The position numbers and the translations under genes were made by a program. Positions 9,956 through 45,961 of a stretch of 64,000 nucleotides of DNA are shown piece by piece (position 1 is the first letter of the stretch; each line of letters starts with the position of its first letter). The DNA lies in the NCBI GenBank assembly GCA_964344175.1, contig CAYFMI010000010.1, forward strand, positions 243-64,242, given 5' to 3'. This DNA comes from an uncultured Anaerolineales bacterium. GTDB taxonomy: Bacteria > Chloroflexota > Anaerolineae > Anaerolineales > UBA11858. A model generated the notes under the pieces. The model had not been told where the DNA came from, ran no database searches, and saw nothing but the letters and a program-made list of their open reading frames with translations.

Positions 9956-11194
9956 TTATCCGCAACCGCCGCCCGATGGGGCGCGTTTCAGTTCGAGTTT
10001 GATCTTCCTCTCGAATTCCATCTCATGGGCAAGATCAAGATCAGGGTAAGCAGCCGGGCAGCCAGAGCCGAGGGCGGCGGTGAATTCATAGCGCAGTTCA
10101 TCATCGGCGCCTGCTTTGATGCCACCGCAGAAATCTTCTTCAAATTCGGTGCCAAAGATGTCTAGCCAGTTGTTGATGCCCCCCTCGAGGATATACACAT
10201 TGGGAACCGATTCGGCGACCATGTGTTTCCATACATCCGTGGCAGAAGTTTCGTCATTACTCATCACCACGAAGACAGTATTGGCGGGTTGCGCAATGAA
10301 TTCGTCGATATGACGGCTAATTTCAGTGGGGAGGATATTTTCAGCATCGAGTAGATGGAAAAGATTATAGTCTGCCTCGCTGCGTACATCGATCATGATG
10401 ATATTCAATTTATGATCGTGCCAGCTTTCCAGCAGTTCGCCGGGGTGGATCTGAAATTGGCGGGCTTCCAGGGCCGGGCCTTTTTCAGGGAGTAAGCGTT
10501 CCCAGCGGTCTTCGGTCGTCGGCTGGCCGACAAAAATCAGACCGACCGCCACCAATACCAGCGCACCGGCGCCAAAATAACGCGCCTTCGGCGCTTTTTT
10601 AGGGTCGATCCCGCCGTAGATTTTCTCGAGTTGTTCGCCACCCCAGAACATAAACAGCGCCATTAACACAACGAGGAGTACTACCCACCCTGTAGGTAGG
10701 CCTAAAAACTCAGGCAGGGTGAAGCGTCCCATATACGATGAGTTGAAAAAAATGTCGTACAAATCTACGCTTTCGCCAAAAACGAAGATCCCGAAGATGG
10801 TACCCAGGGCAAAAAAGATACCGTCAATTTTTAATGTGGCCGCACCGACCAGCGAAGTGCCTGGTCAGTAACCGCCAACGATGAACCCGATCCCCATTAT
10901 GAAGCCGCCAATAATCCCAGGCCAGAGATAAGTGGGGTTGACATAGATCAGGTTGTAATCTAATAATCCAATTGCTGATGCCGAAAATACCAGTACCATC
11001 GCCACAATGATGGCAGTGAACATGACCTTAAGTACGGTCAGGTTCTTGAAGTAAAACTGAGCCGCCAATAAGGGGGAGTTCGCAAAGCCAGAGATTTCGA
11101 GGACATAGCCAAAGGCAAAACCAATCATCAAGAAAACCAGATTGACGCCAATGGGTAGGAATATTTCTGCGAGAGGGAGAGGGAATGGAGACAT
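9956..11194 (-). CDS. YeeE/YedE-family sulfur/selenium transporter half fused to TM segments and a rhodanese-like domain; needs in-frame UGA (10865-10867) decoded, candidate selenoprotein
   Basis: ORFs 10865..11194 and 9956..10762 share one frame, and all 34 codons between them are sense. The TGA falls in GFIVGGY-[TGA]-PGTSLVG. The sequence after the TGA continues as a hydrophobic helix, IDGIFFALGTIFGIFVFG. The rhodanese fold contains IIMIDVRSEADY...ILEGGINNW. The alternative model is two separate genes. Confidence 0.5.
10837..10851 (-). other. candidate bacterial SECIS stem-loop (UGGUC-GGUGC-GGCCA) 13 nt 3' of the UGA
   Basis: It was read on the minus strand. The stem is 5 bp including one G-U pair, and the loop is GGUGC. 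A second possible hairpin, GACCAG-N8-CUGGUC, includes the UGA itself. Confidence 0.25.
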
Positions 11195-11206
11195 GTTATT
11201 GTTCCT

Positions 11207-11779
11207 TTAGTTCCATAGTTTGCGCACAAAATAGGCCAGAGCATAGGCGCCGCCAAATACGGCAAACATAAAAGCCCAGCTTCCTGTGGAAAGTACCGCG
11301 CCGCCAGAAAGCGCTTGCCCCGAGGTGCAGCCGCGCGCCAGACGGGCGCCAAAGCCCATGAACGCCCCGCCAACAAAGGCCATCAGCCAGCGTTTGCGGT
11401 TTGATATATTCGGTCCTTTACCGGTTTCGGGCTTGATGCGTCCATGTAGCCAGCCGGAGAAGAAACCGCCAAGAAGCACGCCGGTGGTTACAAAGACGAT
11501 CCACGAATCGAGCGGGTTCTTGCTGCCGCCAGCCATCGCCAGGAGATAGGGCGTTAGGTCAACGTGCTTAGGGGCAATCAAATCTTCGAAGAAAACCAGA
11601 AAGCGATTCAGTCCGCCTGAGGCCCCTAGGCCGCTCCCGGTGATGAAGAACGACAGAAATAACACGACACCAAGTACCGCGCCCCCCAGGTATGCGTTGA
11701 CGTGATCTTTCTTTTCGCGTTGAAAAATGAACTTTTTCAACGCCGAGGCTTTCTTGGGTGAATGAGTTGCAGTTGTCAT
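11207..11779 (-). CDS. YeeE/YedE family membrane protein (sulfur-transport domain)
   Basis: The 190-aa polytopic protein has the motif GARLARGCTSGQALSGG typical of the family. It lies directly upstream of the second YeeE-like ORF. Confidence 0.7.
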   Translation of the reverse strand: MTTATHSPKKASALKKFIFQREKKDHVNAYLGGAVLGVVLFLSFFITGSGLGASGGLNRFLVFFEDLIAPKHVDLTPYLLAMAGGSKNPLDSWIVFVTTGVLLGGFFSGWLHGRIKPETGKGPNISNRKRWLMAFVGGAFMGFGARLARGCTSGQALSGGAVLSTGSWAFMFAVFGGAYALAYFVRKLWN

Positions 11780-14538
11780 TCTTGAGATTCCTCCTCGGCT
11801 GGGGCATGTACTTCAACTTCGTCCCAGCCCATCATCATAGCTTTGATGCCGGCCATTGGGGTATGACCGGTCGTTGTCAGGTAAACGTGCATCACAATAA
11901 ACGATGCGAACATCCAGGCGACCAGGGTGTGGAAAGGCCCCAAGAAAGGCAGCCCACCCAAACTTTCCGCGATACTGGGCCAGCGTTGCGCGCCCCAGAT
12001 GAGAATGCCGGTGATTCCTTGCAACGGCAGCAGTACATTCAGGATGCCGAAATAGGTCACTTGTTGGAGTGGGTTGAGTTTTCGGCGGGTCGTTTTCTCA
12101 AAGGGATGTTCCGCTCCTTTGAAGATGCCGTTCAGGTAAAATTTTGTCTGGGTGATGGCTTGGTCGAAGAAACCGCGCGGTCTAGGAATGTATTGTTGGA
12201 TTTCGCCGCTGACCAGGTGGTAGAACAATGACAAGGCTGCGTTTATCGCCAGGATGGCGGCGACGATGTTGTGGACGATGACAACCCCGCGGAAACTAAA
12301 CATGCCGAAAGTGTCCGGTTTGTGGATAATCAACCCGGTGAAGAGCAAAAGTACAATGGCGAAGGTTTGCAGCCAATGCCACAGCCGCTCGTAGACGGTA
12401 TACATGTACACGTTTTCAATGCGCGCCTCATGTGTTGGTTGCCGCATTGAAGAATACACACGTAAGCCGCCGTGGGCTACGATCCCTAGCAGAACGCCCA
12501 TAAACATTAGCGATCCGGCCAGGTCTATCCACCCAAGGTTGTTGTGTCCGAGAATGTATAAGTCATTCTGATCGGTATCGGGCCGATAGAACAATGCGCC
12601 GCTTTCATCGGTGTAGATCTCGCCGTCGAGAATTGTGTTCGTATCATTAACGAATTCAGGCATCACACTGCCGGGCGCGTATGACGATAGTTGAATTGGC
12701 TGAGTAATGCGGGATTGTGCACCATGGCAGGCGGCGCAATCTTTCAGCGCCCCATCGCCGCCGACAACATTGTGATTGATGCTGTAGGGTTGCACTTCGC
12801 CTACAATGCGGGGATTCCCCAACCCGATGCGTGTCAGACGGTCTTTGATGAACTGTTCTTTCTCCGATGTATCTATGAGTAGTTCACTTTCATCAAGACT
12901 TCCATCCTGGTTTCCATCGAAGCGCAGCAGTACACCGGGGAGATAATCGCCATTTTCTACATATGCCGCTTGCAAGTCATCCATTCGTACAGGGCGAGGA
13001 GGGTCGCCATAGACCCAGAACCAGGTGGTGATCAAGTTGTGGGGGGCCAGACTGTTGCCACCATCGACATCGGTGCTGGGGAGCAAGACGGGTTCGTACC
13101 CTACCATCAGCGACCGCATGGTATCCTCATCGCCCTCGATGCCGCGACATTCTGTGGCTGCCTGGCCTTCGAGGGTTATCACTGTCCAGTCGTGCTGCAT
13201 ATTCGATGATGAGTACATTTGCGGTATGTGGCAACTTTCGCAGCTAATTGCGGTCATATGGCGGTCTTTGTAAGGCAGCCATTCGTGTGTGTTTTCTACG
13301 CTATGGCAGGAGGCGCACCGCCGCATGGTGTCTTTTAATTCTGGGGCCACCGTGCCCTGGGCGCTATTGCCGCGGGCAAATTGATGGAGCGGCTTTTCAA
13401 GGTAGTCACCAATTTCCAGCCGACGGGGATCGAAGAGCAAGTGTTCGGGCAGTGTACTTTCAGACTCGCGGAAGTAGAGCGGGTTGTTAAGCGAATAGTG
13501 GCAATCGGTGCAGTTTAGCAGGCGTTCTGCGTGCACATCCCAGGGGCGGTTGAGCGTTTCTTTGTTTGCCAGGTTCATGCCCGAATCGGCTAGTTTTTGC
13601 GGTGAGATGATTTGCCCGGTTGTGATGGTGCTCCAGCGTTCGGCAGAGCAGCCCAGCATGACGAGAGGATCTTCTACGTTGTCATGCACCAGACCGTGGC
13701 ACAAGCCGCAATTATCGTTGGTGGGATCTTGAATGATGGGGAGTTCCGCCGAGAGTTCGCCCTCGGTGTTGAAGGCTGCCGCGTTCCAGGTGTAGGTGTC
13801 GCCGCTTTGTTCAACGATGCCGGTTCCCACCAGGGTGGCGGTATTGGCCCAGCCGAAGTTGCCGCGTTGAATCGCTTCTACGCGGGTTTCGTTGTTGGGG
13901 GAGGGAATATGGCAAAGGAAGCAATTCATCTCGATAACGCCGGATGCGCGCCAATCCCAGCCGACCATTTCGCCGGTGTCCTCATCGATGGTAGCTGTCT
14001 CTGGGTTGGTTGGATCAACCTCGAGGCTGGTCAGAGGTTCCCCGCTTTGGGCGTAAATGGCAGGTCCGCCACCGACGTGCCGCGTCCCATAGAGTTGAAT
14101 CCACATCGGGGTGGTTAAGTCAATCCGTTCATCTCCCGCCGGTGAGAGATAGCGATAGCCAATCGAATTCCACTTCCCGAAAAATCCGGGGCTGATATCC
14201 CAGGCGCGTTGGCTGGTGGTTGTGCCGGGTTCGGTGATTTCGTGCAGCCCAATGCTGGCATGGAAACTATGCTGTTCGATGAAATCGGCATTGTGGCAGG
14301 CCCCGCAGGTTTGCATGGTGGATACTGCCGCTCCTGAATCGAGAACGTTGACGCCATTCTCGTCGAGGAAGGGGAAGGTGGGGTGGATGGGGGAGAGTTG
14401 TGGGGCGGTGTTGATTGCTCGCTTGGCTTGGGCGAAGTCCCTCGTGACCAAAACTGCCGCGAACAAGAGCATCACTGCCATGCCGATGAAGATGATTCGT
14501 CGAGTTTTTCGTGGACGAAAGGTAGGTTTTGTTGGCAT
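11776..14538 (-). CDS. heptaheme c-type cytochrome fused to a C-terminal diheme-type cytochrome b (FdnI/PhsC/HydC-like) membrane domain
   Basis: The N-terminus is a signal anchor. There are 7 CxxCH motifs (CGACH, CFLCH, CGLCH, CTDCH, CASCH, CESCH, CAACH). The C-terminal TM helices carry YERLWHWLQTFAIVLLLFTGLIIH and further conserved His residues. Confidence 0.75.
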   Translation of the reverse strand: MPTKPTFRPRKTRRIIFIGMAVMLLFAAVLVTRDFAQAKRAINTAPQLSPIHPTFPFLDENGVNVLDSGAAVSTMQTCGACHNADFIEQHSFHASIGLHEITEPGTTTSQRAWDISPGFFGKWNSIGYRYLSPAGDERIDLTTPMWIQLYGTRHVGGGPAIYAQSGEPLTSLEVDPTNPETATIDEDTGEMVGWDWRASGVIEMNCFLCHIPSPNNETRVEAIQRGNFGWANTATLVGTGIVEQSGDTYTWNAAAFNTEGELSAELPIIQDPTNDNCGLCHGLVHDNVEDPLVMLGCSAERWSTITTGQIISPQKLADSGMNLANKETLNRPWDVHAERLLNCTDCHYSLNNPLYFRESESTLPEHLLFDPRRLEIGDYLEKPLHQFARGNSAQGTVAPELKDTMRRCASCHSVENTHEWLPYKDRHMTAISCESCHIPQMYSSSNMQHDWTVITLEGQAATECRGIEGDEDTMRSLMVGYEPVLLPSTDVDGGNSLAPHNLITTWFWVYGDPPRPVRMDDLQAAYVENGDYLPGVLLRFDGNQDGSLDESELLIDTSEKEQFIKDRLTRIGLGNPRIVGEVQPYSINHNVVGGDGALKDCAACHGAQSRITQPIQLSSYAPGSVMPEFVNDTNTILDGEIYTDESGALFYRPDTDQNDLYILGHNNLGWIDLAGSLMFMGVLLGIVAHGGLRVYSSMRQPTHEARIENVYMYTVYERLWHWLQTFAIVLLLFTGLIIHKPDTFGMFSFRGVVIVHNIVAAILAINAALSLFYHLVSGEIQQYIPRPRGFFDQAITQTKFYLNGIFKGAEHPFEKTTRRKLNPLQQVTYFGILNVLLPLQGITGILIWGAQRWPSIAESLGGLPFLGPFHTLVAWMFASFIVMHVYLTTTGHTPMAGIKAMMMGWDEVEVHAPAEEESQE

Positions 14539-14637: not shown

Positions 14638-16086
14638 TCAGGGCTGATAGCTGTTCGAGCGGAAGCGTCCGCCCCAGTCGATGGGGTCGCCATAATAGCC
14701 GAGGGCTTCCCAATCCATGCGGCCGTTTTCGCCGTGACAGTTATCGCAGGTTAATGCGTCGGAGGCCGGGCTGACCATGTGAGTGGTCGGCCAGTACATT
14801 TCAGTTTCGGCAAAATCGTATTGACCGCTGTAATCGAGACCGACGATTTCAGAGCCAAGCGCCAGCGCTTGATCCCAGTCGAAATCATGCCAGAACCCAC
14901 CTTCCCCGTAGGTAACCGGTTGCAGCAGGATGTTGTAGACGGCATCGTAGGGCTGCTTGGCACGATGGACTTTGAAGGGCCAAATTTTTGCCCCCGGGTC
15001 GGTAATATCCCCATTGGGTATATTGATCGGTGTGGAGACGGATGGATCCATCACATCGCCGAAGATATAGCGACCGGCGGTGCCGTTGTACCAGGCAAAT
15101 TCAGGCTGGAAGTTGGAAGTGTATACGAAGCTGCCCTTGATTTTTAAATAATCGTGAACATTTTCTTCGATGTCGTCGCTGCCAGCGGTGGACCAATCCC
15201 AGTACATTTTTGTGGCATCGCGCGTGGCAGCAACCGGGATGTGACAAGTCTGGCAGGCAACGGCCTGAACATGAGCGTTGATGCGGTCATCTTCGTGGAG
15301 GTCTTCATTATGACAGTCGGTACAGTAAATTTGGTTGGTATTGTCCAGGCTGACAGAAATTGAGCGGCCGCTGATGTTGTGGGCTTCGGTTTGGTGGCAG
15401 TCAGTGCACAAGAAATCGTGCTTGCCCATATGAACATCGACGCTTTCGGGAGGAAAGTAGAGGGTTTCATCAAGGTCGCCGTGTTTTACTGCGTTACCGC
15501 CCCCGCCATTGAAATGACAGCCACCACAGTTTTCGCGCGTTGGCATCGCTACGCTTTGGGCGGCGGTCAGCAGGTCAACGCCTTCAGCAGGGTATCCCGC
15601 AGCGCTTTTTACATAGATGCCGGAGTTGTCGTGGCATACCAGACAGTCAATATTCTCTTGATTCGAAAAATCGAAATTGGCATCATCCCATCCATACCCG
15701 GCATGGCAGGATGTGCAACCTGCCCAGTTGCCTTGAATGCCAATGCAGAAGTTGTTGATCGAATTTTTCTTGCCAACGGTTATGGGGCCATCGCGCCCGG
15801 GCAGGGTGTAGGGTTCGCTTTCCCATGTCCAATGGGCTGTTTGCATGACTTCGAACCCGGCATTTTCGTGACATTCCAGACAAGCACGGGTGACATCAGA
15901 CCCGTTTTCGTAGGGGCCTTCGATGATGTCGCTATGGTCGGTGTGCGGAATTCGAAGAGGGACATTCTCCCAGGGCGCATCGTTAGTTTGTTTTTCGCCG
16001 TTGGTAGTGAAAATGACAATAGGGACGATAAGGATTGTCAATGTGATCGTTAATCCTAACAACCAGATAAATTTTAAGTTTTTCAT
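14638..16086 (-). CDS. octaheme c-type cytochrome, tetrathionate reductase (Otr)-like family, copy 1
   Basis: A signal anchor is followed by 8 CxxCH motifs. The N-terminal signature is CLECHENAGFEVMQTAHWTW. It is a paralog of 43171..44718. Confidence 0.65.
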   Translation of the reverse strand: MKNLKFIWLLGLTITLTILIVPIVIFTTNGEKQTNDAPWENVPLRIPHTDHSDIIEGPYENGSDVTRACLECHENAGFEVMQTAHWTWESEPYTLPGRDGPITVGKKNSINNFCIGIQGNWAGCTSCHAGYGWDDANFDFSNQENIDCLVCHDNSGIYVKSAAGYPAEGVDLLTAAQSVAMPTRENCGGCHFNGGGGNAVKHGDLDETLYFPPESVDVHMGKHDFLCTDCHQTEAHNISGRSISVSLDNTNQIYCTDCHNEDLHEDDRINAHVQAVACQTCHIPVAATRDATKMYWDWSTAGSDDIEENVHDYLKIKGSFVYTSNFQPEFAWYNGTAGRYIFGDVMDPSVSTPINIPNGDITDPGAKIWPFKVHRAKQPYDAVYNILLQPVTYGEGGFWHDFDWDQALALGSEIVGLDYSGQYDFAETEMYWPTTHMVSPASDALTCDNCHGENGRMDWEALGYYGDPIDWGGRFRSNSYQP

Positions 16087-16190
16087 AGCGTGTAAATCCT
16101 ATTTTGATAAGCGCAACTTAGAAGGACGTGCCCGGCTTGGGGGGCAGAATTCTTCTAGCAAGTTGATGTTGTCACGAGGGAGTTTGTTGG

Positions 16191-16556
16191 TTACTTTGAA
16201 TTGGTGGCTTCTTCGACAAGGTAAGCACGATGGGTCAGCCGGTCGTATAGGACAGTGCGCAATAAATCCAATGCTTCGATAAGACGCTTATCGCTGAGGC
16301 GATATTCAACACTAGCGCCTTTGCGGGTGGCGCTAACCAGCCCGCGCTGGCGAAGGATTTTCAAATGCCTGGAAGTGGCAGGCTGGCTAATGCCGATAGA
16401 ATCGGCCAGGTCGCCGACGCTCCAGGGGCGCTCGGCAAGCTGATAGATCATCAATATTCGCCTAGGATCTGCCAGGGCAGAACAGATTTCTGCGTGGAGT
16501 TGATTGATTTCTTGAACGAGATCAGATTTTGTCATGGGTATCATAGCCTTATTCAT
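16191..16556 (-). CDS. ArsR/SmtB-family transcriptional regulator, copy 1
   Basis: The HTH region is LADPRRILMIYQL...VGDLADSIGISQPATSRHLKILRQRGLV. The protein has a single Cys (EICSAL). An internal ATG (Met8) is an alternative start. Confidence 0.8.
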   Translation of the reverse strand: MNKAMIPMTKSDLVQEINQLHAEICSALADPRRILMIYQLAERPWSVGDLADSIGISQPATSRHLKILRQRGLVSATRKGASVEYRLSDKRLIEALDLLRTVLYDRLTHRAYLVEEATNSK

Positions 16557-16602
16557 ATAATCGTATATATCGAGATATTAACATTCAGGAAGATGAACTG
16601 AT

Positions 16603-16618
16603 AGTGAACCTTGTCACA
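16603..16618 (-). promoter_or_regulatory. CRP/FNR-type palindrome TGTGA-N6-TCACT upstream of arsR copy 1
   Basis: The plus strand reads AGTGAaccttgTCACA. The extended match TGATAGTGA-N6-TCACA-N-GGGGGG is shared with 42991..43017. The site lies 47 nt upstream of ATG 16556. Confidence 0.45.
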
Positions 16619-16896
16619 TGGGGGGCGGCCGAATGTCATGTAGATATGACAATAATTGTGATATGTAAAAACTATGTGTCATACGATAAAAAAGATAACC
16701 AATGTCTTATTTGGCGCGTAAAAAATAACCAGCCGCCCACAGGCAACTGGTTAGCTAGGATCATCAAATTTTAAACTTAGAATCGATCTAAAAAATGCTC
16801 TTGGCAGGTTTCCATATCCGCCGATTATTTTTGGATAGGTGCTTAGGAATTCCCCCCTGTGAGATACAATTGCTCAATTTGTGAGTGAGGCAAGTA

Positions 16897-17808
16897 TTAG
16901 ATCAGGGGATAGGGGTACGGTAAATCCAAAATAAATTCCCAGAAAGCACTTTGAGCAATGGTGGTCGGGCGGTTGGTATTACGCCCAATGTAAATATTGC
17001 GGTGGATATTTAGGCCATCAATTTGGATGGGCACTACCCGCCCATAGCCAAGCTTGCGAACGATGATCTCGGACACAAAGCCAACGCCAAGCCCTTCTTG
17101 CACCGCGAGTGCAATCGCTTCGGAATTCCCTAACGTCATGAGAATGTCGAGGGAATTTGTATTCACATCAATTTCGGATAAGGCGGCGTTAACAACAATA
17201 TAGGTGCCGGAATCGATTTCCCTCATCAGGAAATTTTCTTCGAATAACTCTCCGGGCTGGATGATCCCTCTCTGCGCCCAGGGGTGCTCGTTTGGAACAA
17301 TGAGGCTGATCGTGTCTTCGAGAAATTTATGAAATTCAATATTCTTGCAAGGCACTCCCGTTTCACTGGTCAGGGCAAAATTAACGTGGCCCAGGCTGAG
17401 CATTTCAATAGCTTGCGATTGGGGAGATACCTGGCAGGTGATACGGACTTTTGAATATTCGTGGTGAAATTTCGTCAACAAATGGGGGAGGATATATTTC
17501 CCGGGGGTTGTGCTACACCCAACGATGAGATGCCCAAAAACCTCGCCCTGGAGCGATGCCATTGTTTCCTCGATATGAATCGAGTGTCTGACCATTTCCC
17601 TTGCCAGCGGCACAAGCGTGATGGCCGCGTCGGTTAATTGCAAACTACGTGTAGAGCGGATGAAGAGGGGTACTTGAAAATACCGCTCTAGCGCCTGGAT
17701 ATGCTGGCTGACACTGGGTTGGCTCATTCCTAGTTGTTGAGCCGCCTGCGTGAAATTCAGTGAATCAGCTGCAGCTAAAAAGACATTGAGTTGATGGGCA
17801 TCTAACAT
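16897..17808 (-). CDS. LysR-family transcriptional regulator, copy 1
   Basis: The N-terminal HTH is LNVFLAAADSLNFTQAAQQLGMSQPSVSQHIQALE, followed by a LysR substrate-binding domain. ATG 17808 is preferred over the track start TTG 17835. Confidence 0.8.
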   Translation of the reverse strand: MLDAHQLNVFLAAADSLNFTQAAQQLGMSQPSVSQHIQALERYFQVPLFIRSTRSLQLTDAAITLVPLAREMVRHSIHIEETMASLQGEVFGHLIVGCSTTPGKYILPHLLTKFHHEYSKVRITCQVSPQSQAIEMLSLGHVNFALTSETGVPCKNIEFHKFLEDTISLIVPNEHPWAQRGIIQPGELFEENFLMREIDSGTYIVVNAALSEIDVNTNSLDILMTLGNSEAIALAVQEGLGVGFVSEIIVRKLGYGRVVPIQIDGLNIHRNIYIGRNTNRPTTIAQSAFWEFILDLPYPYPLI

Positions 17809-17854
17809 AATATCGCTCTGTTCAAATGATAACAACCCTTTATATTAGCAAACA

Positions 17855-17870
17855 AGTGATAAAGATCACA
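17855..17870 (-). promoter_or_regulatory. CRP/FNR-type palindrome TGTGA-N6-TCACT in the lysR/cytochrome divergent region
   Basis: The plus strand reads AGTGAtaaagaTCACA. The site lies 47 nt upstream of ATG 17808 and 132 nt upstream of ATG 18002. Confidence 0.4.
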
Positions 17871-38606: not shown

Positions 38607-38976
38607 TCTTCAGAGCGAGGCAGCCAGAGATCACCCATCCCCGAAGACCCTTTGGATGTTTGAAGAAGCTAGGTACGCGTATAGATGATAATGCCAGGGC
38701 TTGAATCCTGGGATGAAATTTGTGATAGGGGAATCAAAAAGATCTATCAAATTGGATATAGATAGTCCGTAAAATTTTGGTACAATAGTCTGATATAACA
38801 TAGAGAGTGCACATGTCCTATGGTTGTGTTGGTGATGCCAGGCAGGGATCAACCTGGGTTTGCTGTTCTCACACAATAACGAGATTAGGCGTTATGCGCT
38901 GACGATGGTGAAAGCCCTGTTTTCGGAGAAATTTTCGTAAAGCTTATAGTTGTAAATTCCATTGGAGGTAATTACC

Positions 38977-39642
38977 GTGGAACCATTTGATAAAGATGCC
39001 ATTTCAGTTGATGTTGGTGTGCGGTTGCGTGATCTGAGAGAAGAGCGAAATCTATCGATGCGCGCGCTGGCACGTATGAGCGGGCTTTCTGCTAATGCCC
39101 TCAGTATGATTGAGCGCGGTAAATCCTCCCCTTCGGTGAGTACACTGTATAAACTTGCAGAAGCGATGGAGGTGCCAATCACCTGCTTCTTCAGAACAGA
39201 AACTCCCCAGAACGATATTGTCTTCCGGAAAGCGAATTCGCGCACTCGTATTCCTTTTCATCGCGGCTTATGGGAGGGGTTGGGGGGTGAGAATTTCGCG
39301 GGTCATGTCGAACCCTTTATGTTGACTCTGGAAAGCGGCGCGAACAGTGGTCGTTTCCCGATGATCCATTCGGGGCATGAATTTGTGATGTGTTTGCGTG
39401 GTCAGCTTGAATATCAGGTGGAGAATCAATATTTTCTCCTCGAGCCGGGTGACACCTTATTGTTCGCAGCAGAATTGAAACATCAGTGGCGCAACCCTGG
39501 GCAAACGGTCGCCAACGCTGTATTTGTCTTAGCGGGTTTCAAAGAGGGAGAAAGCCCCAGTGAATTTCATATTGTTTCTGGGTTATCAGATACAGATGGT
39601 GCGGTCATTGTCGATACAGATGACCTCATCGGCGAGGTTTGA
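38977..39642 (+). CDS. XRE-family HTH regulator with C-terminal cupin domain
   Basis: The HTH is RLRDLREERNLSMRALARMSGLSANALSMIERGKSSPSVSTLYKLA. Cupin-like motifs HSGHEFVMCLRG and GDTLLF follow. A GGAGG RBS lies 8 nt before GTG 38977. Confidence 0.75.
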   Translation: MEPFDKDAISVDVGVRLRDLREERNLSMRALARMSGLSANALSMIERGKSSPSVSTLYKLAEAMEVPITCFFRTETPQNDIVFRKANSRTRIPFHRGLWEGLGGENFAGHVEPFMLTLESGANSGRFPMIHSGHEFVMCLRGQLEYQVENQYFLLEPGDTLLFAAELKHQWRNPGQTVANAVFVLAGFKEGESPSEFHIVSGLSDTDGAVIVDTDDLIGEV

Positions 39643-39720: not shown

Positions 39721-40224
39721 TTAGATAAATACGATCTGAGCGCCCTCGGTCATATCCATGAAGTCGCCTGCAGTGACAATCCCCTGAACGCCATCCACAA
39801 AATCGTCCATGCTCTGGCCGAACATATCCACAGACATCTTGCAGGCGTAGAGATTAGCGCCTCCGTCGACAAGCATTTCCAGGTATTCATCCACCGGGGG
39901 AGCCTGCACTTCGGCAATTTTCTTCTTCATGAACCAAGAAGTGAAGGCAGTCATGCCGGGCAAGATACTGAGAATATTAGGGATACCCAAATTGCCGGTA
40001 GGCAATCCCATCAAGCTCATTTTCATGCTGGTCTTTGTGATGGGGGAAAGCTCAAGGCGTTTTTGGCGCTTTTTGTTGATGATGTCCATGCCCCAAAACG
40101 TAAAGAAAATGGTGACATCGATGCCATTGCCAAGCGCTGCCCATCCCATTACCAAAGCCGGGTAGGCCATGTCCAAATCGCCTTTGGAGCAGATAAACGC
40201 AATGTGTCGGTTTTCATTTGTCAT
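39721..40224 (-). CDS. DsrE/DsrF/DrsH-like family protein
   Basis: The N-terminus IAFICSKGDLDMAYPALVMGWAALGNGIDVTIFFTFWGMDII matches the DsrE-2-type family pattern. Confidence 0.65.
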   Translation of the reverse strand: MTNENRHIAFICSKGDLDMAYPALVMGWAALGNGIDVTIFFTFWGMDIINKKRQKRLELSPITKTSMKMSLMGLPTGNLGIPNILSILPGMTAFTSWFMKKKIAEVQAPPVDEYLEMLVDGGANLYACKMSVDMFGQSMDDFVDGVQGIVTAGDFMDMTEGAQIVFI

Positions 40225-40263
40225 GATTAATCCTTTTTTAGGTTTCTAATCGAAAGCCAGCGA

Positions 40264-40569
40264 CTAAACACAGCCTTCGGGTTTACCGAGACCAGAAATC
40301 TTGGCGACTTTCTTGGCTGGTCCTTTGGGGTAGAGTGCAAAAAGCGCTTTGGTGGAAATGCCCGTGCCCTTAGTGATTTGACGCAGCGTTGGCGCGGCGC
40401 CGGTGCTTTCAGCATTATCGCGGCAGAATTCAATGACAGTCCAGTGATCGGGCGTTAATTCGGCAATTCCTTCTCCCTGGGCAATTTCTGCAGCAATTTC
40501 TTTGCTCCACTGACTCGGATCGGTCATGAAGCCTTCCTCATTGAAATTGACAGTATCTAATATAGACAT
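40264..40569 (-). CDS. TusE/DsrC/DsvC-family sulfur relay protein (single C-terminal Cys, TusE-type)
   Basis: The 101-aa product contains FNEEGFMTDPSQW...LTPDHWTVIEF. Its C-terminal arm is KISGLGKPEGCV. The second Cys found 10 residues upstream in bona fide DsrC is absent. Confidence 0.75.
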   Translation of the reverse strand: MSILDTVNFNEEGFMTDPSQWSKEIAAEIAQGEGIAELTPDHWTVIEFCRDNAESTGAAPTLRQITKGTGISTKALFALYPKGPAKKVAKISGLGKPEGCV

Positions 40570-40596
40570 GGGTTTACTCCTTCTGAAAGATGTGAA

Positions 40597-41277
40597 TTAG
40601 TTTTGCGTTGCAGATTGCTCATCCAACGCTTTGAGTAGATTGATAAGCCGGGCCATCCCGCGGCGAACTTTGGGGTTTCCAAGTTCCCGCAATAAAGCCC
40701 AGGTTGAGACTTTCTCAGATTCGGGCATTTCTTCTTGAATTGCGCCCACTGCGTTATTGGCAATTGCCATAATCTCAGGTTGTGTCATGCTGCGAACGGT
40801 GTTCAGGATGATGACGATATTGTCACCCAGGGCGCGGACATCATCTTCACTGAATTCGGTGGTGATGCGTTCGACAATTCGCCAGCCTTCACGGGCAAAA
40901 TCGAAATACCCTTCACGTTCGAATTGATCTAATTGCTCAACGGCCACATTGAAGACTTGCTTGCCGAGTAATTCAACTTCATCAGTGATCCCCATCAAAG
41001 CCTCAACGCGATCCATCAATGCCAGCCACAAATGGGTGTTACGGATTACTCTTTTGAGTAGGAAGAAGAGATCTTCAACGGCAAATTCGGTGCCAATCTC
41101 TGCGAGTTCGTCGATGGTCAGTTTGATCATATGATTGACCATCGGGATGACATCATTTTTCAATTCTTCAAATTCTTGCAGTCGCCTTTGCTGAACCTCG
41201 GCATGTGAAGTCAGTGCGGCTACCTGCTCGGTGAGAGCGTCAACTTTTTGGTGGAGGAGGGCTAGATCATCTGCCAT
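40597..41277 (-). CDS. DUF1641-like protein (coiled-coil N-terminus)
   Basis: The C-terminal region TWALLRELGNPKVRRGMARLINLLKAL resembles DUF1641. It lies directly downstream of an SQR-like flavoprotein. ATG 41277 follows an AGGAG RBS. Confidence 0.5.
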   Translation of the reverse strand: MADDLALLHQKVDALTEQVAALTSHAEVQQRRLQEFEELKNDVIPMVNHMIKLTIDELAEIGTEFAVEDLFFLLKRVIRNTHLWLALMDRVEALMGITDEVELLGKQVFNVAVEQLDQFEREGYFDFAREGWRIVERITTEFSEDDVRALGDNIVIILNTVRSMTQPEIMAIANNAVGAIQEEMPESEKVSTWALLRELGNPKVRRGMARLINLLKALDEQSATQN

Positions 41278-41288
41278 GATGCACTCCT

Positions 41289-42521
41289 TTAGGCCCACTT
41301 CCCGGCCATGGTCATCTGAGATTCGAAGGGCATTTCGCCACCCTTCAACAAGATGTTCCAATAAATCCAACGGAAGGCCATCTTGCCCCAGTGATTAGCA
41401 GCTGATTCTTTGAGCAGCGAGAAGGGCCCAAATCCGGGTAGGGGGAATTTCCCAGGCAATGGTTCGACATCATAATTGAAATCGATTAAGATGCCTTTCT
41501 CGAAACCGGATTCGATATAGCAATTGGCATGCCCGTCAAATTTGGGTAGCGGTTGAAGGCCTTCCATGTGGCGAAGCATATTTTCGATGAGCACATCGAG
41601 CATAAAGTGCGCTACGGACCCGGCCTTGGAGGTTGGTGCATTGCCTGCATCGCCGATCACCCAAACATTTTCCCATTTATCAGATTGCAATGTGTGCTTG
41701 TCAATGGGAACGTAATTGAGTTCATCCCCCATGCCGGAGCGATCAATCACCTCAGACCCCATGTTGGTAGGAATGGTAACTAGCAGATCGTAGTTGATTT
41801 CACGCTCATCCCAAGAGCTGATGACTTTTCGATTGTTATCAACTTCGCCGATATTGAATTCAGGCTCAAGAATGATGTTCTTCTGATCGAGCATGTCACC
41901 TAAAATGGAAGATGCGCGCGGCTTTGTGAAAGCGCCATCCAATGGGGTGGCAAAAACAATTTCGACATTGTCGCGAATGCCGCGTTCGTGGAAGAACCAA
42001 TCGGCCAGGAACAAGAATTCCAGCGGTGCAACCGGGCACTTGATGGGCATCTCGGTGATATTCAGCACCATGCGCCCGCCCTTCCAGAATTTCAAGAATC
42101 GACTCAAGGCGGTCGCGCCCTCGATGGTGTAGAAGTCGAAGCGATCCTCATGCCAGCCTTCATCGACCATGCCTTCAGTTTCTTCGGGGTGGATTTGGGT
42201 CCCCGTGGAGATCACCAAGTAATCGTAGTTGATCACTCGGCCCTCTTTGATCAGCTTGACCCGATTTTTGTCGGGTTCGATGATTTCTACATCCGACAAT
42301 ATGAACTCGACATTATGTGGGATGAAATCTCGTTTAGGCTTAACCACATCTCCGGGGCTGTAGATGCCAAATGGAATGAAGAGGAACCCTGGTTGATAGT
42401 AGTGGGTTTCGTACTTATCAACGATGATGATACGCCATTCCGCAGGATCGAGTTCATGAGCCATTTTATTGGCAACCATTGTGCCACCAGTCCCAGCTCC
42501 GAGGATTAGTAGAGTTTTCAT
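41289..42521 (-). CDS. NAD(P)/FAD-dependent oxidoreductase, sulfide:quinone oxidoreductase-like
   Basis: The N-terminal Rossmann motif is LLILGAGTGGTMVA, followed by HYYQPGF and PIKCPVAPLE motifs. ATG 42521 has an AGGAGA RBS. Confidence 0.65.
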   Translation of the reverse strand: MKTLLILGAGTGGTMVANKMAHELDPAEWRIIIVDKYETHYYQPGFLFIPFGIYSPGDVVKPKRDFIPHNVEFILSDVEIIEPDKNRVKLIKEGRVINYDYLVISTGTQIHPEETEGMVDEGWHEDRFDFYTIEGATALSRFLKFWKGGRMVLNITEMPIKCPVAPLEFLFLADWFFHERGIRDNVEIVFATPLDGAFTKPRASSILGDMLDQKNIILEPEFNIGEVDNNRKVISSWDEREINYDLLVTIPTNMGSEVIDRSGMGDELNYVPIDKHTLQSDKWENVWVIGDAGNAPTSKAGSVAHFMLDVLIENMLRHMEGLQPLPKFDGHANCYIESGFEKGILIDFNYDVEPLPGKFPLPGFGPFSLLKESAANHWGKMAFRWIYWNILLKGGEMPFESQMTMAGKWA

Positions 42522-42552
42522 AGAAGTTTCTCCTGTATGTGTAAGAATGTAG

Positions 42553-42936
42553 TTATGCAGATAATTCTTGTTGGACGGTATCGGCAAGTTCGCTTTGATC
42601 GTGCAAGCGGCTTGCCAGCACAGCCCGGAGTAGATCTAATGCTTCGATGATGCGCGGGTCGGAAAGCGAATAATAAACCGATTGGCCATCGCGATTTGCG
42701 TTGACCATTTGGCGTTCTCGCAGAACTTTCAAGTGCCTCGAAACCGTAGGCTGGGGGAGTTCGATTGTCTCTGCGAGCTCACTGACATTGTGGGGGCGAT
42801 CATGCAATGTATAAAGGATCAGTATGCGAGTGGAATCTGCCAACCCGCTACAGATTTGAGCGTGTAATTTATTGATCTCTGCCCGGAGTTCTTTCATGGT
42901 GGGGTCACTTTTCCCAATGGTTGATTCTATAAACAT
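42553..42936 (-). CDS. ArsR/SmtB-family transcriptional regulator, copy 2
   Basis: The HTH is LADSTRILILYTL...VSELAETIELPQPTVSRHLKVLRERQMV. There is a single Cys at the same position as in copy 1. ATG 42897 is an alternative start. Confidence 0.8.
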   Translation of the reverse strand: MFIESTIGKSDPTMKELRAEINKLHAQICSGLADSTRILILYTLHDRPHNVSELAETIELPQPTVSRHLKVLRERQMVNANRDGQSVYYSLSDPRIIEALDLLRAVLASRLHDQSELADTVQQELSA

Positions 42937-43170: not shown

Positions 43171-44718
43171 TTATTCTCCTGGGGGGAATACCTGTAACTT
43201 GGCAATTTCTTCCTCGGAGTATCCCAAAGCAGCAAAGTCGAGAATGCTCTCTTGGCTGTGGCAGGCTTCACAGGCCAGAGCCTGGTCGGCAGGCGAAACC
43301 TGGTGCGTGAGCGGCCAATACATTACTGTATTGACCCAACCCAGTTCGCCGCTGAATTCGTAGCCGGCAACTGCCTGCCCGCCTTCGGCGGCCAGGTTCC
43401 AATCCCAATTTGCCCAGTAGGCGGTTTCAGGATTTGTAGGGAACAGGTTGGGGATGACCAAAGCATTCGTCGCGGCATCGTAAGGCTGAATGGCATAGAA
43501 TGACTTCATGGGGAAGATGACCGCGGTTTCATCGGCTCGTTCACCGTGCATTGTATTGATCGGTACAACAGTTTCGGGATCAAAGGTATCGTCCAGGGTG
43601 ATATAGGTGGTATCACCATTGAACCACATATAGTCAGGTGTCAGGCCAATGCCCCATTCGAAGGAGCCTTTGTTAGACATGTAGATTTTATTGCCATTTT
43701 CGTCTTTTTCAACCATCCAAACTTTGCGGCCTTCAAAGTCGCCTTCGCCATCTATTAACTCGCCGGCAGTATTCCAATCCCAATAAGTTTTGGTGTACTG
43801 TTCTTTGGCATAAGTGGGGATGTGGCAGGTTTGGCAGGCGACTCGAGCCGTATGGGTGTTCAATTCTTCGGTTTCATGAGGATCCGTTTGGTGGCAGGTT
43901 ACACAACTTTTTACAGTTGTCTCGCCGGTGAGATCCATTTCGTAGCGGCTTCCAGCGACATTGTGATCTTCAGTGGTGTGGCAGGTCTGGCATGCGAAAT
44001 TAGAACCCTCGGCTGCCATGTGGACATCCACATCGGCGGTGGGTTCGAGCATTGATGTATCTAAGTCGCCGTGTTTGACGTTTGCGCCACCGCCGCCATT
44101 AAAGTGGCAGGAGCCGCAATTGGCGCGAGTGGGCATTCCAACACTTTGGGCAATCGCTGTCAAATCAAGTGGAGACCAGACAGTACCATAGGGTTCACCC
44201 GGGCCGGCAGGGAATAGCTTTTCTTCATAGGTTGGATGACCAGAACCAGCGGGGAATTTCTTGTAGGTGCCGGTTGTATCGTGACATACCAGACAGTCTA
44301 CGGCGGTTTCATCCATCGCGGCAAAAGCCTCAGGATTAGAGTACCCATATCCTACATGGCAACTCGTGCAGCGCGGCCAGTTCGAATCTACTGCGACGCA
44401 GTAGTTGTTGATGACATTGTTCTTACCGAGTTCTTGCCCGTCTTCGGTAGCATATTCCCATGTCCAGTGTGTAGTTGCCATCACCTGGGAGCCTGAGTCT
44501 TGATGGCATTCTAGACATGCTTGCGTAACTTCAGGGCCCGTGGCGAATTCGGCCTGAAGTTGTTCGTATTCGCTATGATCGGGGGGGGCATCCTCGCCCG
44601 CAAAAGCCGGGGTTGTCATAGCCGGGGCACTGAAGATAATGCCCAAGACAAGCAATGATACAGCTAACAATCCCAAGGTTATGCGGGTTTTCTTGGATGT
44701 GTGATGAAATCGTTTCAT
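43171..44718 (-). CDS. octaheme c-type cytochrome, tetrathionate reductase (Otr)-like family, copy 2
   Basis: A signal anchor is followed by 8 CxxCH motifs. The signature is CLECHQDSGSQVMATTHWTW. ATG 44718 has an AGGAG RBS, and the track start at 44832 is rejected. Confidence 0.65.
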   Translation of the reverse strand: MKRFHHTSKKTRITLGLLAVSLLVLGIIFSAPAMTTPAFAGEDAPPDHSEYEQLQAEFATGPEVTQACLECHQDSGSQVMATTHWTWEYATEDGQELGKNNVINNYCVAVDSNWPRCTSCHVGYGYSNPEAFAAMDETAVDCLVCHDTTGTYKKFPAGSGHPTYEEKLFPAGPGEPYGTVWSPLDLTAIAQSVGMPTRANCGSCHFNGGGGANVKHGDLDTSMLEPTADVDVHMAAEGSNFACQTCHTTEDHNVAGSRYEMDLTGETTVKSCVTCHQTDPHETEELNTHTARVACQTCHIPTYAKEQYTKTYWDWNTAGELIDGEGDFEGRKVWMVEKDENGNKIYMSNKGSFEWGIGLTPDYMWFNGDTTYITLDDTFDPETVVPINTMHGERADETAVIFPMKSFYAIQPYDAATNALVIPNLFPTNPETAYWANWDWNLAAEGGQAVAGYEFSGELGWVNTVMYWPLTHQVSPADQALACEACHSQESILDFAALGYSEEEIAKLQVFPPGE

Positions 44719-45040
44719 TCTTAACACTCTCCTAAATGTTGTGGACGTGCGTTCTGCCTTCCTGGTTGCATTTTGTGGGGGGGTTCGCGTGATGAGGCGC
44801 GACCCACATTGGTGCAGTTCATCACAATACATTTTGTGACAAACTACGTTGGAATTCTCACCGATGCTATCTATAATATGTAGTAACGATTGTCATGTGC
44901 ATTTATTAGCACGGCTTATGTTAATGTATGATGAATTTCTTATACCCATTTGCTGTAAATGTTAGGGCTTACGCAATTCGATAGAGGTATCCCTACTTGC
45001 GGGCAAAAACATTGTTAGCAAATGCTTGAAAGGCGCATAT

Positions 45041-45961
45041 ATGCTAAATATAGATGATTTGGTAGTTTTCGTCGAAGCTGCTGAATGCAATAACTTCAGC
45101 ATGACCGGGAGAAAATTACACCTTACCCAACCTGCTGTCAGTCAGAAGATTAGTAACTTGGAAGATCGCTTTGGTGTCAAACTATTCATCCGTCAGGGAC
45201 GTTCGATGTCGCTAACGGAAGCTGGGCAGGTTTTAGAACCGATGGCAAGAGAATTGATCGGGCTATCGCGCCGCCTTGATGAAACAATGGTTTCGCTGCA
45301 GGGTGAGGTGATTGGCGAAATGACGGTGGGGTGTTCGACAGCATCTGGAAAATATTTGTTACCAGGGTTAATTGCATTATTCCGCAAGCGATATCCCTTG
45401 GTGAGAATCAACGTCGAAGTCTCGAGCCGCGACAGCGTTTTTCGAAAAATATCCGCGGGAGATGTTGCTTTGGGCGTCTCAAGTAAGAAAGTTGAGCACC
45501 GTGATCTGGAGTACCGCAAATTGTTTACGGATGACGTCATCCTCATTGTCCCCGCAGGCCACCCCTGGGCCGACTTTCCGCATGTCTATCCCGATGATAT
45601 TCTCGATCAGCCGATCATTTTGCGGGAATCAGTCGCGGGGACGCGAGAAGTTTTTATGGCTGCCTTGCGAGAGCATGATTTGTTCCCCGAAATGCTCAAT
45701 GTCGTGATGGAGCTTGGCAACGCTGAAGCGATTGAGATGGCCGTAGAAGAAGGCATCGGAATTGCTTTTATTTCTCGTGCCGCTGCACAACGCGGCTTAG
45801 AATTAGGAAAAATTGCTGAGGTACATGTCGAGGGTATGCAGTTGCAACGAGATATTTATATGGTGCGAAATACAACCATTCAACCCACGCGTACCCAACT
45901 GTATTTCTGGGAATATATAGAGGCATCCGAAGTGCAGCAAAGACTTGCGCAAGTCGCCTGA
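45041..45961 (+). CDS. LysR-family transcriptional regulator, copy 2
   Basis: The HTH is LVVFVEAAECNNFSMTGRKLHLTQPAVSQKISNLE. It is divergent from Otr copy 2 and a paralog of 16897..17808. Confidence 0.8.
   Translation: MLNIDDLVVFVEAAECNNFSMTGRKLHLTQPAVSQKISNLEDRFGVKLFIRQGRSMSLTEAGQVLEPMARELIGLSRRLDETMVSLQGEVIGEMTVGCSTASGKYLLPGLIALFRKRYPLVRINVEVSSRDSVFRKISAGDVALGVSSKKVEHRDLEYRKLFTDDVILIVPAGHPWADFPHVYPDDILDQPIILRESVAGTREVFMAALREHDLFPEMLNVVMELGNAEAIEMAVEEGIGIAFISRAAAQRGLELGKIAEVHVEGMQLQRDIYMVRNTTIQPTRTQLYFWEYIEASEVQQRLAQVA

Follow-up and report, generated by a model that had tools for sequence, protein, structure and literature searches.

Why an uncultured member of the Anaerolineales should set aside some 36 kb for c-type cytochromes, sulfur-handling proteins and their regulators is the question raised by the block at positions 9956-45961 of a 64,000-nucleotide stretch of contig CAYFMI010000010.1 (assembly GCA_964344175.1). 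This whole stretch is referred to here as the window, and its numbering is used throughout. Our analysis points to a chromosomal supercluster for menaquinol-driven extracytoplasmic reduction of polysulfide or elemental sulfur (S0) and of tetrathionate, possibly also of selenite, a reading to which we assign a probability of about 0.6. Among its genes is one for a selenocysteine (Sec)-containing undecaheme cytochrome, hereafter SecCyt11, encoded next to an exported four-domain rhodanese.

The original prediction for this DNA, made from the sequence alone, had described an island of ten c-type cytochrome genes. All ten open reading frames (ORFs) were recovered where it had placed them, and its heme motif counts were reproduced exactly from the translations: in gene order from 11776 to 44718 they are 7, 8, 11, 10, 8, 9, 1, 9, 8 and 8. 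Their sum of 79 comprises 77 CxxCH, one CxxxCH and one Cx4CH motif, the last two both lying within 30439-32142. Residue-shuffled versions of the same ten cytochromes contained a mean of 0.33 CxxCH motifs and a maximum of 3 (1000 shuffles), and no further ORF of at least 100 amino acids in any frame of the 64-kb window has such a motif. Annotation of the cytochromes with hidden Markov models, which the prediction had recommended and which was run here with Pfam and NCBIfam, bore out its domain assignments, including the rhodaneses, YeeE halves, DsrE2-like protein, TusE/DsrC-like protein and type III sulfide:quinone oxidoreductase (SQR) that it had seen among the cytochromes. Its broader view of an extracytoplasmic, quinol-linked multiheme system tied to sulfur or selenium chemistry, without an outer-membrane conduit, is supported. 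The chalcogen link is in fact stronger than it had supposed, with two enzymes of the octaheme tetrathionate reductase (OTR) family, two selenoproteins and an adjoining gene for SelA.

SecCyt11, a selenocysteine-containing undecaheme cytochrome

The SecCyt11 gene (18002-19399, plus strand) encodes a product of 465 amino acids in which the TGA codon at 18245-18247 is read as Sec82. This residue lies in the N-terminal part, past heme 1 and ahead of heme 2, as the U of a G-U-GG motif (context ENEGEG-U-GGEVAPLEPWEKV; motif G-U-GGEVAPLEPWEK in the predicted product). The earlier count of 11 hemes for this gene stands, but the in-frame TGA had been overlooked, and the 11th heme requires that the codon be read as Sec. 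A protein search returned 2018 homologs at E<=1e-10, and a scan of one genome per species placed relatives in at least 581 genomes. Of the loci in these genomes 80 were kept, all from Anaerolineae or otherwise-labelled Chloroflexota, and the comparisons reported below cover 81 Sec-cytochrome loci from this species-representative collection. Carriers include Thermanaerothrix solaris (L041), Bellilinea, Ca. Villigracilis, Ca. Leptofilum and Ardenticatenaceae.

An in-frame stop is kept at the Sec82 site in approximately 78 of the 81 related genomes. The codon is TGA in 68 loci and TGG in one, 10 further loci have an in-frame stop by tblastn, and two loci are truncated. The rare full-length homologs carry Cys at this position in P0014, P0092 and P0047, which read G-C-GGEVAPLEPW, and W, L or V in the others. 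The majority of deposited SecCyt11 proteins start exactly at (M/V)APLEPWEKV, directly past the stop, and public gene calls split the gene into fragments of about 81 and about 380 amino acids (P0010, P0017, P0043, P0075 and others; in L001, for example, genes 7840-8085 and 6688-7830). Because gene callers split it at the UGA, the family has been invisible in annotations. Many of the large fragments are labelled 'thiosulfate/3-mercaptopyruvate sulfurtransferase' by the Joint Genome Institute (JGI), which looks like an annotation carried over from the adjoining rhodanese.

Downstream of the UGA lies a hairpin, GGCUCC-GUU-GGAGCC (18259-18273, plus strand), that begins 11 nt 3′ of the codon and places its loop 17 nt downstream, a distance within the range for bacterial selenocysteine insertion sequence (SECIS) elements. 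Nucleotides 13-29 past the UGA (GUGGCUCCGUUGGAGCC) show essentially no variation across 69 sequences, and all five synonymous third positions within the hairpin (in Val, Ala, Pro, Leu and Glu codons) are invariant in the 68 TGA sequences, whereas synonymous sites just before and just after it vary freely; selection therefore acts on the RNA. The sole TGG sequence has lost the first base pair of the hairpin. Since the folding energy of neither this hairpin (z 0.22 versus shuffles) nor the one described below for the second Sec site (z -0.96) is significant, the SECIS argument rests on conservation, not thermodynamics. The gene for SelA, the selenocysteine synthase (46505-47860, plus strand; PF03841, 1.3e-130), lies 544 nt past the right edge of the block; genes for SelB, SelD and tRNA-Sec are absent from the window, in which ARAGORN found no tRNA. 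The conserved in-frame stop, the Cys-containing homologs, the invariant hairpin and the presence of SelA in the window together support the assignment of 18002-19399 as a bacterial selenoprotein gene. A scan of every TGA between long open frames for further hidden selenoproteins yielded just two sites in real genes, this one and that of the YeeE fusion.

The most constant companion of SecCyt11 is the exported rhodanese encoded immediately downstream (19430-21127, plus strand), which has a signal peptide in its translation and four PF00581 domains (2e-65). A multi-rhodanese gene stands beside the Sec-cytochrome in 77 of the 81 loci. All four domains of the window protein keep the active-site loop CGSG[WH]R[AS]T with its catalytic Cys, a feature that favors a role in the reduction of sulfur compounds as proposed here. 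A LysR-type regulator, LysR1 (16897-17835, minus strand; PF00126 and PF03466), is divergent from this operon, and 66 of the 81 loci have a LysR gene no more than 10 kb from the Sec-cytochrome.

SecCyt11 matched no family of NCBIfam release 20, and neither PDB sequence nor profile searches found a solved relative. Apart from the Sec/Cys site, the invariant cysteines of its alignment are those of the heme motifs. The family is likewise absent from the table of a 2026 selenoproteome review, and full-text searches of the literature on Anaerolineae or Chloroflexi selenoproteins, multiheme cytochromes, OTR, OcwA and Thermanaerothrix solaris revealed no account of it or of the cluster.

A YeeE-type fusion in which selenocysteine replaces a pore cysteine

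The second Sec site lies at the left end of the block. The ORF at 9956-10762, previously taken for a rhodanese gene in its own right, is in frame with 10865-11194 through a TGA at 10865-10867, and the two constitute one fusion (9956-11194, minus strand; 412 amino acids; PF04143 and PF00581) composed of a YeeE half, the Sec residue (context GFIVGGY-U-PGTS), a transmembrane (TM) segment and a rhodanese-like domain. The frame continues for 302 codons beyond the TGA into the former rhodanese ORF. Of the 77 homologs found in metagenomes, TGC or TGT occupies this site in 75 (GG[FY]-C-PGTS) and TGA in two; the latter are the closest homologs, at 89-90% identity, and come from other samples, such that the Sec form is limited to one shallow lineage (3 of 78 sequences, the window included). 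Past the TGA these three sequences differ at 65-73% of synonymous and at approximately 7% of nonsynonymous sites. Because the resulting pN/pS of 0.09-0.11, compared with 0.05 upstream of the TGA, reveals purifying selection, the region past this codon is translated. We thus read the codon as a recent Cys-to-Sec switch and not as the mark of a pseudogene.

A candidate SECIS of atypical geometry overlaps the UGA of the fusion (10844-10869, minus strand; hairpin ACUGACCAG-8 nt-CUGGUCGGU). Its stem has 9 bp and its loop lies just about 4 nt past the codon; maintenance of the stem via G-U wobbles in L085 and L086 is weak evidence for it. The rhodanese-like domain is without a catalytic Cys (VVMSNDETSAT), and the C terminus ends in GGCG, a tail kept in almost all homologs (L085-L164). 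By analogy with YeeD or DsrC, this suggests that the tail is a mobile arm that accepts sulfur. The adjoining gene (11207-11779, minus strand; PF04143, 3.7e-23) encodes a second YeeE/YedE-family half-transporter, with a GCTSG motif and weak matches to the TsuA and YedE models. The pair thus resembles YeeE/YeeD (TsuA/TsuB) in having the PF04143 fold, here split in two halves, and in possessing a soluble domain with a terminal Cys that could play the part of YeeD. The YeeE/YedE selenoprotein family listed in a 2026 review has the motif GUxSG (PMC13188914). In the present fusion, by contrast, Sec replaces the conserved pore Cys within a GG(Y/F)-U-PGTS motif, and the fusion partner is the rhodanese-like domain with its GGCG tail rather than a TusA-like protein.

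OTR enzymes, quinol modules and stalked cytochromes

OTR1 (14638-16086, minus strand) and OTR2 (43171-44718, minus strand) have eight CxxCH motifs each and pass the whole-protein cutoff of TIGR04315, with 569 and 566 bits, respectively, versus a cutoff of 375. OTR1 matches Shewanella OTR (PDB 1SP3) over its full length (E 3e-151) and keeps the segment GKKNSINNFC, at the position of which OTR2, 39% identical to OTR1, carries GKNNVINNYC. The Lys of this GK(K/N)N motif is presumably the active-site heme ligand, K56 of 1SP3. Unlike its Shewanella counterpart, OTR forms part of a fixed cassette here, its partners being a heptaheme-cytochrome b fusion and the YeeE pair; we found no description of this arrangement.

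The fusion in this cassette (11776-14538, minus strand) joins a c domain with seven CxxCH motifs to a PhsC/HydC-type cytochrome b (PF01292 at 713-902). Its best NCBIfam match, the PhsC model, scores 143 bits and falls under the cutoff of 204. It has more than 2000 homologs, mostly in Anaerolineales, and in the loci compared its gene always adjoins OTR; searches of PDB by sequence and by profile revealed no meaningful relative. We regard it as a candidate quinol dehydrogenase. In architecture only, it is like Geobacter CbcL and Salmonella PhsC, in which a HydC/FdnI/PhsC-type cytochrome b is joined to c hemes. It departs from them in its sub-cutoff PhsC score, in lacking a molybdopterin PhsA/PhsB partner and in having seven rather than nine hemes, and the name CbcL does not occur among 120 of its homologs listed.

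ArsR-type regulators accompany both OTR genes. ArsR1 (16191-16556, minus strand; PF01022) is upstream of OTR1, an arrangement seen at OTR genes in other loci too, and ArsR2 (42553-42936, minus strand) is 55% identical to it. In each, a lone Cys immediately precedes the ALAD(P/S) helix, where we take the persulfide sensors BigR and SqrR to carry the first of their two sensing Cys residues; neither regulator has a counterpart of the second.

Three quinol-oxidase-type modules had been proposed, and all three are borne out by Pfam and NCBIfam: the heptaheme-cytochrome b fusion, an octaheme/FeS/NrfD trio, and a cytochrome b paired with a nonaheme cytochrome. A possible fourth had been overlooked, namely a cytochrome with an NrfH/NapC-like N terminus and a C-terminal PSCyt1 domain (30439-32142, minus strand; seven CxxCH besides the two longer motifs). 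The trio consists of an octaheme cytochrome with a C-terminal TM anchor (27342-28274, plus strand), a Tat-exported 4x[4Fe-4S] protein of the DsrO/QrcC/NrfC type (28293-29066, plus strand; twin-arginine motif NRRDFIK) and an NrfD-family quinone-interacting membrane subunit (29005-30321, plus strand; PF03916, 7e-34), the true start of which is probably near 29068. In comparison with DsrMKJOP, Qrc and Hmc, the FeS protein passes the DsrO cutoff (215 versus 200 bits), but the NrfD protein is far under the cutoffs for QrcD (208 versus 570 bits), HmcC and DsrP, and genes for DsrMKJ or QrcAB are missing. The third module pairs an FdnI-type cytochrome b fused to a monoheme PSCyt1 domain (32322-33479, minus strand; Pfam, NCBIfam) with a nonaheme cytochrome that has a C-terminal TM anchor (33476-34588, minus strand). 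The PSCyt1 ('Planctomycete cytochrome C') domain is known mainly from Planctomycetes, and the C-terminal PSCyt1 regions of 30439-32142 and 32322-33479 are 43% identical.

The two cytochromes previously called stalked lipoproteins proved to be so. The octaheme protein (34854-36122, minus strand) has a lipobox, a collagen-like (GPX)n stalk (PF01391) and eight CxxCH motifs, and matches OcwA, a terminal reductase of Thermincola potens (PDB 6I5B; E 2.7e-14), over residues 64-262 only. Like OcwA, it is a multiheme protein outside the membrane of an organism without a porin-cytochrome conduit in the region examined; unlike OcwA, it has eight rather than nine hemes and is a lipoprotein on a collagen-like stalk, and the alignment is partial (approximately 200 residues). 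The decaheme protein (21899-24097, plus strand) has the lipobox LVSC and a Cys/Pro-rich stalk, and arose by internal tandem duplication of a 5-heme unit, the halves being 47% identical; PDB sequence and profile searches found no solved relative, and a curated one was not found either. Acidic loops of the DGDGD type and a CPxCPxCP stalk are further features of this protein. Every ORF of at least 250 amino acids in 9956-45961 has another assignment, and hence, as had been noted before, the block offers no beta-barrel candidate of the MtrCAB, Pcc or ExtI type. The earlier idea of a cell-wall-spanning architecture fits a stalked lipoprotein related to OcwA, the surface reductase of Gram-positive Thermincola.

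Conserved cassettes and gene order

Neighbor counts were obtained by tblastn of all block proteins against the 81 loci, within 10 kb on either side of the Sec-cytochrome. Next after the rhodanese and LysR come the NrfD, FeS and octaheme genes of the trio, with matches in 32, 28 and 27 loci, followed by OTR (15), the heptaheme-cytochrome b fusion (10), the decaheme lipoprotein (8), cytochrome b-PSCyt1 and the nonaheme cytochrome (7 each), the collagen-stalk octaheme (4) and the SQR/TusE/DsrE2 set (1). Complete copies of the cassette ArsR-OTR-heptaheme/cytochrome b-YeeE-YeeE/rhodanese are found elsewhere, surrounded by unrelated genes, which speaks for a functional association of OTR with the sulfur genes of the kind proposed here. 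In L166 this cassette adjoins PFOR and ribosomal protein genes, and in L165 it adjoins an SQR/DUF1641/TusE/DsrE2 set and the same FemAB flank as in the window. In L004, cytochrome c maturation genes adjoin a group made up of the Sec-cytochrome/rhodanese pair, the trio and the cytochrome b/nonaheme/collagen-octaheme set. OTR and trio matches stand consecutively on one strand in L058, which shows that modules are swapped.

The three closest loci (L005, L007 and L009, 70-80% identity) keep the window order from the YeeE/rhodanese fusion through the second response regulator, and two of them extend it to orf116; FemAB is the left neighbor in two of the three (L007 and L009). In a JGI contig the order is similar, except that a further histidine kinase/response regulator pair follows the rhodanese. 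The window itself lies within a 95.9-kb metagenome contig (ENA ERZ930070, run ERR2281802). The closest relatives of the window proteins come from uncultured Anaerolineales metagenome-assembled genomes, including L008 (isolate BS150m-G17), a label that may denote the Black Sea at 150 m and that we count in favor of sulfur reduction.

The block had been called an island and treated as one system, and neither description holds. A mobile or acquired island was rejected: GC is only slightly below that of the flanks, and gene order over the left two-thirds that were compared is shared by relatives of 70-80% identity, two of which also have the FemAB neighbor. The lowest GC in the window, 0.447 at 16001-18000, coincides with ArsR1, LysR1 and the AT-rich stretch that holds the divergent promoters of LysR1 and SecCyt11. 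As for a single system, the block is a mosaic of at least six cassettes found separately or in other combinations elsewhere. It is a stable supercluster of mix-and-match cassettes that combine terminal enzymes with interchangeable quinol modules. These cassettes include ArsR-OTR-heptaheme/cytochrome b-YeeE pair, LysR-SecCyt11-exported rhodanese, the octaheme-FeS-NrfD trio, the OcwA-like stalked cytochrome with the cytochrome b/c set, and OTR2-type III SQR-TusE-DsrE2.

Proposed function and its nearest precedent

From the gene content, the Sec decoding, the conservation of the cassettes and the homology to OTR and OcwA, we infer the substrates, the direction of electron flow and the modules that feed each enzyme. 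Menaquinol would be oxidized by interchangeable modules (heptaheme-cytochrome b, octaheme/FeS/NrfD, cytochrome b-PSCyt1 plus nonaheme, and the NrfH-like cytochrome), from which electrons would pass via c-heme chains to the terminal enzymes. The two OTR octahemes would reduce tetrathionate or related anions, and the YeeE pair with its fused YeeD-like domain would import a thiosulfate-type product. The four-domain rhodanese may capture sulfane sulfur, as does Wolinella Sud, and pass it to SecCyt11, in which Sec82 would attack S-S (or Se) bonds that are then cleaved with heme electrons, as in Geobacter MccSep. The OcwA-like and decaheme lipoproteins, on stalks of about 10 nm, may carry the heme chain through the wall to insoluble S0, or to metals. 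SQR III, DUF1641, TusE and DsrE2 would handle sulfide or persulfide in the cytoplasm, while the ArsR, LysR and two-component regulators would switch each cassette. An exported rhodanese-type sulfur carrier combined with an NrfD/FeS-coupled membrane-linked reductase is also found in the Sud-Psr system of Wolinella succinogenes, except that catalysis here would fall to a heme/selenium protein instead of a molybdopterin enzyme.

The nearest precedent is the ext cluster of Geobacter, which encodes the rhodanese-like ExtH, the porin ExtI, the Sec-containing pentaheme ExtKL, cytochromes with 12 and 10 hemes, a Rieske/cytochrome b pair and a lipoprotein cytochrome (PMC5877670). Work from August 2026 showed that ExtKL (MccSep) reduces polysulfide and is required for respiration of S0; substrate attack by its Sec takes place next to a heme with His/Cys ligation, and its activity toward selenite is weaker (PMC13510729). 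MccSep thus stands beside a rhodanese, multiheme cytochromes and a cytochrome b module (PMC13510729, PMC5877670), the combination that serves as precedent for our reading. MccSep occurs mainly in Desulfobacterota and Nitrospirota, Chloroflexota being absent from the main text of that report (PMC13510729).

The claim that no single described system matches this block stands for the whole set but not for its core, to which Geobacter extHIJKLMNOPQS with MccSep is an analog. Both bring together a rhodanese-like protein, a Sec-multiheme cytochrome, further cytochromes with 10-12 hemes, a lipoprotein cytochrome and a cytochrome b quinol module, and in both a UGA within the cytochrome gene splits its annotation into two ORFs. 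On the other hand, the present cluster lacks an ExtI porin, has PhsC, NrfD and NrfH types of quinol module in place of a Rieske/cytochrome b pair, and belongs to a member of the Chloroflexota. SecCyt11 has 11 hemes compared with five in MccSep, and its Sec is residue 82, in the N-terminal G-U-GG motif, rather than in a C-terminal Ig-like domain (DGUP). ExtH-MccSep is the closest analog of the present cluster, which does not belong to that system: it has the same parts minus the porin, with the parts themselves non-homologous. We tentatively propose, at somewhat less than even odds, that SecCyt11 and its exported multi-rhodanese constitute an unrecognized heme-selenium chalcogen reductase family that evolved independently of MccSep and for which polysulfide or S0 would be the likeliest substrate.

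Several points weigh against this assignment of function. Cultured Anaerolineae are mostly described as fermenters, and a set of SQR, TusE and DsrE2 genes is typical of sulfur oxidizers as well. An AlphaFold2 model of the Cys-type homolog P0014, built from a 26-sequence alignment, was unusable (mean pLDDT 40.5, pTM 0.23). SecCyt11 is not homologous to MccSep, the ExtKL model NF040886 giving no match to it at E<=0.001, and it is without a second conserved non-heme Cys like the heme-ligating C239 of MccSep; for these reasons its chemistry may differ. Finally, the physiological substrate of OTR is uncertain even in Shewanella; the enzyme also reduces nitrite and hydroxylamine (discussed in PMC13510729).

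Alternative explanations

The same hemes could serve extracellular electron transfer to insoluble metals or electrodes through a wall-spanning heme wire, fed by the quinol dehydrogenases and terminating in the OcwA-like and decaheme lipoproteins, with the sulfur genes being accessory or coincidental. The block offers 79 hemes without a porin, two stalked lipoprotein cytochromes, a match of one of them to Thermincola OcwA and a cytochrome b-multiheme fusion that resembles CbcL of Geobacter in architecture, and carriers of the SecCyt11 family include Ardenticatenaceae, among which an Fe(III) reducer is known. The original prediction had entertained metal respiration, for which the OcwA-like protein is a specific point in favor and the only one. 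Yet the match to OcwA is confined to about 200 residues, the stalked cytochromes are the least conserved (4-8 of 81 loci), a catalytic Sec would be unexpected in a pure electron wire, and the cytochromes are most consistently accompanied by rhodaneses, YeeE and OTR, enzymes and transporters that handle soluble sulfur or selenium species; we consider this explanation unlikely. It is also improbable that the block serves oxidative sulfur metabolism, in which OTR would act as a thiosulfate dehydrogenase, SQR III on sulfide, and SecCyt11 with its rhodanese in the manner of TsdA or SoxAX, electrons entering the quinone pool or a terminal oxidase. A type III SQR above its cutoff, YeeE-type thiosulfate uptake and a rhodanese/TusE/DsrE2 relay of the sort typical of sulfur oxidizers would all suit such a pathway, and the MccSep reaction has been related to the reverse of that of TsdA/SoxAX (PMC13510729). 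The window, however, contains no Sox, Dsr, Hdr-like or terminal oxidase genes. Its membrane modules are of types known mainly as quinol dehydrogenases, and the lineage is mostly anaerobic.

Two selenoproteins, an adjoining SelA gene and ArsR-type regulators might instead be taken as signs of selenite or tellurite detoxification, in which the rhodaneses and SecCyt11 would reduce these oxyanions extracellularly, or of selenium acquisition by a Sec-bearing YeeE that imports selenium for SelA. The YedE family has been linked to selenium metabolism, a weak match to NF033796 being found here, and MccSep reduces selenite, the ext cluster having first been linked to selenite and tellurite reduction (PMC13510729, PMC5877670). 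We nevertheless find this option highly improbable. Four quinol modules and 79 hemes would be a large investment for the purpose; SelA is near the Sec-cytochrome in none of 81 other loci, the Sec of YeeE is a recent, lineage-restricted replacement of Cys, and MccSep itself favors polysulfide over selenite. Least credible, to the point that we give it hardly any weight, is nitrogen-oxide reduction, in which the quinol modules would supply electrons to OTR octahemes that reduce nitrite or hydroxylamine. OTR shows promiscuity for nitrogen substrates (PMC13510729), and several of the cytochromes have weak NrfH- and NrfB-like matches, but no nitrogen-cycle genes are present, and the linkage to YeeE, rhodanese and the sulfur relay is tight and conserved.

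Implications of the proposed chalcogen respiration in Anaerolineae

Anaerolineae are among the most abundant bacteria of anoxic sediments, digesters and the subsurface, and are usually treated as fermenters. If SecCyt11 and its rhodanese do constitute the proposed reductase family, one of the most abundant bacterial classes of anoxic sediment, sludge and subsurface would consist of selenium-dependent sulfur respirers. They would then take part, by respiration, in the cryptic cycling of sulfur as S0, polysulfide, tetrathionate and thiosulfate, in a manner tied to selenium availability. In this lineage the same selenium logic would also have reached a YeeE-type transporter, the pore Cys of which was swapped for Sec. 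The novelty would lie in a heme-selenium system for chalcogen reduction whose protein family, phylum and envelope type all differ from those of MccSep. It would be a second, independent case of catalysis based on heme plus Sec, the first having been shown in 2026 for the Geobacter enzyme. The modular layout, in which quinol dehydrogenases and terminal enzymes are interchangeable and surface cytochromes are stalked in the absence of a porin, would provide a useful model for extracytoplasmic respiration without an outer membrane. The hundreds of SecCyt11 genes that have been deposited as two fragments expose a systematic annotation error.

Other genes of the block and its flanks

The sulfur relay at 39721-42587 (minus strand; NCBIfam) encodes SQR III, DUF1641, a TusE/DsrC-like protein and a DsrE2-like protein. 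The SQR scores 655 bits against the 525-bit cutoff of NF049943, a selenoprotein subtype. The window protein is nonetheless the Cys form, with GHANC where the family has HxxU (PMC13188914) and an ORF free of internal stops. The TusE/DsrC-like protein passes TIGR03342 (79 versus 53.5 bits) and has a single C-terminal Cys, and the DsrE2-like protein, at 102 bits, falls under the cutoff of 210. A candidate Sec-type SQR in L165 (2346-3582) was rejected: it is split by a frameshift, has the motif HANC and probably reflects an assembly error in a long-read contig.

The seven DNA-binding regulators previously recognized are all present, namely two ArsR, two LysR, two LuxR-type response regulators and one XRE-cupin protein (38962-39642, plus strand; Pfam), and the block encodes two histidine kinases besides. 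Histidine kinase 1 (24336-25841; HisKA_3, with a multi-TM N terminus) is followed by response regulator 1, the pair spanning 24336-26463 (plus strand), and histidine kinase 2 (36386-37942) by response regulator 2 (36386-38606 together, plus strand). The kinases are paralogs with 36% identity that share a multi-TM sensor with an HG(G/I)HEWLEIF motif and no Pfam domain match; this N-terminal region could be a membrane redox, heme or quinone sensor. LysR2 (45026-45961, plus strand), divergent from the OTR2 operon, was assigned by its 41% identity to LysR1.

Two small genes matched no family. The product of orf116 (26976-27326, plus strand), upstream of the octaheme gene of the trio, has an N-terminal TM segment and a Cys-rich tail; a 116-amino acid gene occupies its position in L004 (1-243; a 68%-identity relative), and homologs of orf116 were found in four loci. 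The other, orf114 (21396-21740, plus strand), is conserved upstream of the decaheme lipoprotein. An Rfam scan of the whole window at gathering thresholds gave no match. Ahead of SelA stands a 130-amino acid ORF (46076-46468) without a family match. Both flanks, at 1-9801 and 52098-58610, are given to polysaccharide and cell-envelope functions, with genes for a FemAB-family protein, a heparinase II/III-like protein, sugar epimerases and glycosyltransferases, and the FemAB-family flank fits the monoderm-type envelope generally ascribed to Chloroflexota.

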